Assembly (NCBI RefSeq): GCF_045037415.1
Contig: NZ_CP173438.1
Strand: one strand, 5' to 3'
From: Escherichia coli
GTDB taxonomy: Bacteria > Pseudomonadota > Gammaproteobacteria > Enterobacterales > Enterobacteriaceae
Length of the DNA stretch: 64,000 bases
Numbering within the stretch: the stretch's first letter is position 1; the number at the start of each line of letters is the position of its first letter. Below are positions 46,784 through 46,799 of the stretch, piece by piece. Under the pieces are notes generated by a model, which saw nothing but the letters and a program-made list of their open reading frames with translations, had not been told where the DNA came from and made no database searches. Both the position numbers and the translations under genes were made by a program.

Positions 46784-46799
46784 AGCAATCGCCGTGCCA
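46784..46799 (-). promoter_or_regulatory. Sigma-54 promoter (-24/-12) upstream of lfgB
   Basis: Minus strand reads TGGCAC-ggcga-TTGCT, about 35 nt upstream of the trimmed lfgB start. Confidence 0.6.

Follow-up and report, generated by a model that had tools for sequence, protein, structure and literature searches.

The TGGCAC-N5-TTGCT element lying upstream of lfgB (46784..46799, minus strand; TGGCACGGCGATTGCT, with GG at -25/-24 and GC at -13/-12) in the E. coli Flag-2 (lateral flagella) locus is, judging from its conservation and surroundings, very probably a functional sigma-54 promoter under the control of LafK, the sigma-54 activator encoded in the same locus. It is assigned here as the class II promoter of the Flag-2 rod/hook operon lfgBCDEFGHIJKL, with RpoN and LafK binding, the transcription start and the extent of the operon all being predictions. 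In the accessible text of Liu et al. (2015; PMC4578781), consensus sigma-54 sites are placed ahead of both lfgB and lafB in E. coli PCN033, the Flag-2 of which is the same locus, and its lfgB site the same element, as the ones described here, so the promoter itself was already known; that text gives the core sites only, and conservation, an enhancer, a lafV promoter, a start-codon argument and a Flag-2 transcription experiment are absent from it. The comparative Flag-2 papers contain no discussion of promoters, and the literature searched yielded no study of Flag-2 transcription in E. coli. The additions made here, both of them modest, are a conserved palindrome as a candidate LafK site and a third (lafV/VR1) promoter.

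The 64-kb stretch of DNA that was analyzed (hereafter, the window) represents the E. coli Flag-2 locus. In the RefSeq annotation of strain SK1144, the corresponding genes run flgN-flgM-flgA on one strand and FlgB-flgC-FlgD-flgE...flgL on the other, followed further off by a “sigma-54 interaction domain-containing protein” and then fliE-F-G-H-I-J, and NCBIfam and Pfam scans confirmed FlgB, FlgC, FlgA, FlgM, FliE and FliF. Gene content and order of the window correspond to lfgNMA / lfgBCDEFGHIJKL / lafK-lfiEFGHIJ (lfg/lfi/laf gene names being taken from the Flag-2 literature), as in lateral clusters encoding lafK. The Flag-2 FlgB rod protein gene lfgB (46412..46747, minus strand) encodes a 111-aa product starting with MGISFQQ, as indicated by profiles (TIGR01396 scoring 105 bits, with the cutoff at 59) and RefSeq WP_000512950.1, and is followed by lfgC-D-E-F-G-H-I-J-K-L and lafW (36524..46409, minus strand; gene order and annotation), which are probably co-transcribed from the lfgB promoter; this presumed operon includes a REP-containing lfgD-lfgE gap of 270 bp. 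Since the divergent lfgA (46829..47566, plus strand), encoding the FlgA P-ring chaperone, starts at 46829, and lfgB at 46747, the motif sits within an 81-bp divergent gap. REP-type elements (Rfam naRNA4) were seen in several Flag-2 intergenic gaps (34096-34173, 45111-45189, 61814-61890 and ~51990-52035).

Read directly, the minus strand from 46799 to 46784 gives TGGCAC-GGCGA-TTGCT, which fits TGGCAC-N5-TTGCW at 11 of the 11 specified positions, with GG and GC exactly 10 nt apart, and which is the only exact match to the TGGCACNNNNNTTGCW pattern on both strands of the 64 kb (0.14 expected based on dinucleotide-preserving shuffles). From the final base of the motif (46784), 36 nt intervene before the A of ATG 46747, and the -12 C (46785) is 38 nt away from the same ATG. 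As 14 out of 100 shuffles yielded one exact match somewhere, a lone match anywhere in the window is only mildly unlikely, and allowing two mismatches in TGGCAC-N5-TTGCW produced 42 matches versus 42 expected, meaning that information is found in near-perfect matches only; a match falling by chance within the 81-bp lfgA-lfgB gap in the correct orientation is very unlikely. A scored scan (GG-N10-GC compulsory, 13 consensus positions) retrieved three sites scoring at least 12/13 in the window against 0.44 expected, a number reached in 0 of 200 simulations. These three sites, 46784-46800 (minus strand) at lfgB, 32410-32426 (minus strand) at lafB and 48444-48460 (plus strand) at a lafV-like gene, as scored, are all correctly oriented and are all found 33-38 nt before Flag-2 start codons.

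Other candidates were rejected. A site at 52016-52032 (plus strand; CCGGCACGAACAGTGCA), closely preceded by a palindrome-like GGAAAAGGCGTTTAC, belongs to a REP element (GCCGGAAAAGGCGTTTACGCCGCATCCGGCAC), reads GTGC at -12 and is wrong in its geometry; the fact that a REP element can give rise to such a spurious match implies that a lone consensus match in this genome may be fortuitous. The remaining sites with a score of 11/13 or one mismatch (37260, 39702, 46993 and a pair at 11175/27933) are intragenic, antisense or located in IS1 and have no palindrome; they were treated as chance, around 3.8 sites being expected at the 11/13 level.

Conservation of the element was followed through an LfgB scan of one genome per species, which gave 79 loci. 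[quoted passage not shown] Across 29 distinct lfgB upstream sequences (enterobacterial genera, Parashewanella/Shewanella, Marinobacter and a Vibrio-type contig), TGGCA and TTGC, with the -24 GG and the -12 GC, are essentially invariant, while the N5 spacer, the flanks and the downstream leader of the very same sequences vary freely; the distance from promoter to ATG also ranges from 35 to 84 nt across loci. Divergent E. coli alleles (97%, 96% and 92% identity) repeat this on a smaller scale, TGGCACG being changed to TGGCATG or TGGCACA with GG and GC kept. This pattern is the strongest computational evidence for what would be a functional lfgB site.

That the motif might nevertheless be a chance match, with lfgB being transcribed from an unrecognized sigma-70 or sigma-28 promoter, is barely credible. 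Such a reading can draw on the frequency of single exact matches in the shuffles of 64 kb and on the REP-derived mimic described above, but it has to contend with a position and orientation that fit the 81-bp gap, with GG and GC being retained in the 29 orthologous sequences despite divergent flanks, with the scan of 46500-47000, in which no sigma-70-like promoter was detected for either lfgB or lfgA, and with the orthologous promoter of Vibrio parahaemolyticus being bound by RpoN. An earlier note, made from the letters of this DNA alone, had proposed a canonical sigma-54 promoter on the minus strand at 46784-46799, “about 35 nt” before the FlgB start; motif, strand and distance (36 nt as measured) all held up, and its identification as a promoter is supported by the -24/-12 elements kept across orthologues and E. 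coli alleles, together with the result of the sigma-70 scan.

With this promoter, the choice of lfgB start codon is settled, too. Based on the -24/-12 promoter definition, transcription is predicted to begin 12 +/- 1 nt beyond the -12 C (46785), i.e., at 46772..46774 on the minus strand. The longer, mechanical ORF mentioned in the earlier note begins at ATG 46777, just 6 nt past the motif, which would be at about -4 with respect to the predicted transcription start and hence upstream of ~46773. RefSeq annotates the 111-aa form starting with MGISFQQ, FlgB profiles align from residue 1 of this form, and the Shine-Dalgarno AGGAG preceding it (46758..46762, minus strand) is conserved in other genera. 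Furthermore, the upstream ATG is absent or blocked in Citrobacter (an in-frame TAA precedes the MGISFQQ-type start) and is put out of frame by a 4-nt indel in Escherichia sp. MOD1-EC7003. Annotation, profile, conserved AGGAG and the blocked or out-of-frame upstream ATG together make the MGISFQQ start call right, in agreement with the predicted transcription start and with the preference expressed before for MGISFQQ as the true FlgB start.

Upstream of the core promoter lies a palindrome, GGAAR-N5-YTTCC, which is proposed as the candidate LafK enhancer (UAS) on account of its three-copy pattern and conservation. The lfgB copy (GGAAATAAAACTTCCGCCTG; 46846..46865, minus strand) has its core at 46851-46865, is centered near -85 and is found inside codons 8-13 of the divergent lfgA. 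The 20-mer pattern is matched exactly by three copies in the window (0.38 expected even with up to two mismatches), and the core GGAAR-N5-YTTCC likewise occurs three times in the 64 kb versus 0.26 expected, all of them at the lfgB, lafB and lafV sites, each copy preceding one of the three top-scoring sigma-54 sites by 41 or 52 nt and having the same orientation. Counting from the initial G of GGAA, the -24 GG is reached after 67 nt at lfgB and after 56 nt at both lafB and lafV, the difference equaling one helical turn, and across loci the spacing likewise falls into two classes, 56-57 and 66-70 nt, about one helical turn apart.

The second copy of the module (32410..32480, minus strand) combines palindrome GGAAACGTCATTTCCGCCTG (32461-32480) with sigma-54 site TGGCACGCCTTTTGCC (32410-32425), the latter being found 33 nt before the ATG (32378) of the fliD-like lafB and 41 nt downstream of the palindrome; the lafB operon includes lafS (sigma-28). 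The third copy (48390..48460, plus strand) combines palindrome GGAAACGGATTTTCCGCCTG (48390-48409) with sigma-54 site CGGCACGCTTATTGCA (48445-48460), 35 nt before ATG 48495 of the lafV-like (FliB-like lysine methylase) gene. This gene heads variable region VR1, which also encodes a GT2 glycosyltransferase (49474-51912). At both lafB and lafV the palindrome is centered near -74. The lafB module recurs in the lafB regions of four other enterobacterial genomes, most of them Citrobacter, and in Escherichia, Pseudocitrobacter, Citrobacter and Phytobacter the lafV module is kept downstream of lfgN, with its palindrome 56-57 (sometimes 66-68) nt upstream of the promoter. The accessible text of Liu et al. 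(2015; PMC4578781), which names the lfgB and lafB sites, makes no mention of the lafV module. The same four lafB regions also show extra GGAA/TTCC half-sites upstream, which, going by their sequence, might form a second activator site. In the window, the lafB module directly follows a conserved hairpin (~32506-32540) that resembles a lafA terminator.

At lfgB, the palindrome-to-GG distance keeps to 67-70 nt throughout the enterobacterial lfgB regions and Parashewanella/Shewanella (~30 loci), GGAA and TTCC being invariant and the seven inner bases varying; in Marinobacter, a comparable palindrome, longer by one inner base, is found further upstream. In the lfgA frame, the palindrome is read as xGG-AAx-xxx-xxx-TTC-Cxx at every enterobacterial locus although the amino acids vary: Arg is always encoded by NGG, Phe is always encoded by TTC, and the codon following TTC is always C-initial, no matter whether it specifies Leu, Pro or Arg. 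In Shewanella, the palindrome precedes the lfgA start and is situated in non-coding DNA.

With its two 5-bp half-sites 10 bp apart, the dyad would suit a dimeric HTH protein, and LafK is the sole sigma-54 activator found in the Flag-2 locus, which is why the palindrome is proposed to be the LafK enhancer. We consider it somewhat likelier than an even bet that LafK binds there. A comparable, moderate degree of confidence is attached to the broader proposal that GCGGAAR-N5-YTTCCGC would be the hitherto undefined LafK enhancer from Vibrio to Enterobacterales, that it would define a three-promoter regulon (lfgB, lafB-lafS and lafV/VR1), and that it would fix the choice of codons in the lfgA signal peptide. 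If true, this would put the flagellin-modification “cargo” genes of VR1 under the flagellar master activator.

It is rather unlikely, yet worth weighing, that the -24/-12 promoter is real while its activation does not proceed through palindrome-bound LafK, i.e., that LafK acts from solution or from another site, that a different sigma-54 activator is involved, or that the palindrome binds a repressor or LafZ (a Trans_reg_C winged-helix regulator also encoded in the Flag-2 locus) or reflects LfgA coding. No published LafK binding site for comparison, nor any report of LafK binding, was found in the literature searched, enhancer-free flagellar activators exist (e.g., FlgR, cited with Francke 2011), and the palindrome in lfgA coincides with a peptide motif of LfgA, R-K-x-x-F, that is itself partly conserved; constraint at the protein level could thus account for some of the conservation of the palindrome at lfgB. 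Codon choice (Arg NGG, Phe TTC) is, however, fixed beyond what the peptide needs, and the palindrome is in non-coding DNA at lafB, lafV and in Shewanella and nowhere else in the window; its helical phasing to GG is fixed, and LafK retains an HTH_8 domain for which dyad symmetry is suitable. A point against the LafK model is that only one full palindrome was seen per promoter, two or more sites being used by many activators.

The block separating the palindrome from the -24 element (46800-46828, CAGTCACTTAAAAAA; lfgA-sense TTTTAAGTGACTG) is conserved across genera as well. Compared with the IHF consensus WATCAANNNNTTR, it is perfect in Pantoea, shows 0-1 mismatch in the Citrobacter/Enterobacter type and has three mismatches in E. 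coli; an IHF site is therefore retained as tentative only, given these three mismatches, a different position at lafB and the overlap with the lfgA leader. In some loci, the same block resembles an lfgA -10 hexamer (TATAAC, TTTAAC).

The activator is encoded by lafK (60700..61686, minus strand), whose product has an AAA+ domain (PF00158 at 1e-63) with an AAA lid and a C-terminal Fis-type HTH (HTH_8), as well as the Walker A motif GETGAGKE and GAFTGA within DKGAFTGA; the description of this ORF as a sigma-54 activator in the earlier note was therefore correct, and its suggestion that lfgB is controlled by this activator is made plausible by LafK being the only one found in the locus, by its GAFTGA and HTH, and by the promoter-specific candidate palindrome. 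As the AAA+ domain begins at residue 6, LafK is without an N-terminal sensory or receiver domain, and it has been grouped with PspF and HrpRS as domain-less activators (Francke et al. 2011). From this absence of a sensory domain, lafK expression in K-12 is predicted to be enough to activate PlfgB. The rpoN gene is outside the window and is carried elsewhere in the E. coli genome.

With lfiE starting 14 nt after it, lafK heads a lafK-lfiEFGHIJ operon. Both a sigma-54 site for lafK or lfiM and the palindrome were looked for in the 386-bp divergent lafK-lfiM gap (61687-62072), which holds a REP/naRNA4 element, and neither was found there, consistent with class I promoters as in Aeromonas. The lack of a sigma-54 site in this gap makes class I (sigma-70) status probable for lafK as well as for the export-gate operon, and, going by the sequence upstream of lafK, makes its autoregulation via sigma-54 improbable. 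In A. hydrophila, LafK up-regulates PflgB_L, the representative class II lateral promoter; the fliM_L and lafK promoters belong to class I and do not depend on LafK, nor do several lateral flagellar clusters of that species, the latter being a point against the LafK model. The class I status of A. hydrophila lafK and fliM_L matches the lack of a sigma-54 site in the lafK-lfiM gap of the window, a comparison drawn from the literature.

The closest experimental precedent comes from V. parahaemolyticus, where the lateral genes are RpoN- and LafK-dependent and LafK is the class II activator. Its flgB2 (flgB_L, VPA0264) is the orthologous first gene of the lateral rod/hook operon; the promoter of this gene is shifted by RpoN in EMSA and rpoN deletion lowers its expression (qRT-PCR), while the lafB promoter is not shifted by RpoN alone, which counts against the model. 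The flgB2 RpoN site (ATGGCACGTATCTTGTTTG) differs from that of E. coli in having TTGT instead of TTGC at -12, and the biology differs as well, the host being marine and its polar flagellum serving as a mechanosensor; the LafK site of V. parahaemolyticus is likewise undefined in the literature. The best 120 matches of the LfgB homologue search were all from Enterobacterales, no Vibrio or Aeromonas sequences being among them. Metagenome contigs searched with the flgB2 site gave five loci, only one of which (L085) was flagellar. A Vibrio-type contig with the exact flgB2 site carries GGAAG-N5-CTTCC 57 nt upstream of GG, one helical turn closer than at E. coli lfgB.

Within E. coli itself, the PspF-pspA pair resembles the LafK model in that a sensory-domain-free activator (AAA+ plus HTH), upstream dyad sites and a sigma-54 core are combined, although PspF has a regulon and a recognition sequence different from those of LafK. 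The upstream PspF sites at pspA are found around -80 to -130. PspF is restrained in trans by PspA, and we know of no PspA-like restraining partner for LafK.

Put together, RpoN-RNA polymerase would bind TGGCAC-N5-TTGCT at 46784-46799 in a closed complex unable to open alone; a LafK dimer would probably bind GGAAR-N5-YTTCC near -85, in the first codons of the divergent lfgA, and LafK would then oligomerize, reach sigma-54 via DNA looping and use ATP for promoter opening. A start near 46773 would give a ~26-nt leader containing AGGAG, with translation from ATG 46747 (MGISFQQ). The same two-part module would serve lafB-...-lafS (filament cap, sigma-28) and lafV/VR1 (flagellin modification), making LafK the switch for the middle tier of the cascade. 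Under this proposal, the second flagellar system of E. coli would be wired like the lateral flagella of Vibrio/Aeromonas, and not according to the FlhDC/sigma-70 scheme of the main flagella, with sigma-54 and LafK leading to rod/hook genes and sigma-28, and the latter to flagellin; the flagellin methylase and glycosyltransferase genes of the variable region are predicted to be co-regulated with the basal body. The palindrome, followed after 41 or 52 nt by the -24/-12 element, might also serve as a signature for finding LafK targets.

Another question is whether the promoter, although intact and ancestrally functional, is by now a silent relic of a Flag-2 system that has become cryptic or is decaying in this lineage, which we regard as quite improbable. 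According to the accessible text of PMC4578781, Flag-2 is thought to be inactive (cryptic) in strain 042, which has an lfgC frameshift; the 1-kb region around the motif is kept by only 1279 of 5426 complete E. coli genomes; and there are IS3-family and IS1 insertions inside cluster 3 of the window, two IS insertions by which the system of this particular Flag-2 copy may not be fully functional. Against this, lfgB, lfgC and lafK are intact, both IS elements are outside the lfgB operon and its promoter, and promoter and palindrome are kept, without disabling changes, in E. coli alleles of 92-100% identity and in cryptic Escherichia clades, which argues for purifying selection.

The IS3-family element (HTH orfA plus rve-integrase orfB; 32602-33959, plus strand) is inserted between lafA (which ends at 34223) and the lafB module, and SK1144 has only ~410 bp where it sits. 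One IS1 copy (27278-28039) is found between lafS (sigma-28, 28062-28778) and the motA-like lafT (26420-27259) and could be polar on the lateral motor genes; a second copy (11085-11857), inverted relative to the first and 99-100% identical to it, completes a pair bracketing ~15 kb that include lafTU and dinB. The segment 12938-14086 gave Rfam matches to isrK, C4 antisense RNA and a tRNA gene (14014-14086, minus strand), which suggests a P4-like or prophage remnant by the tRNA, unrelated to Flag-2.
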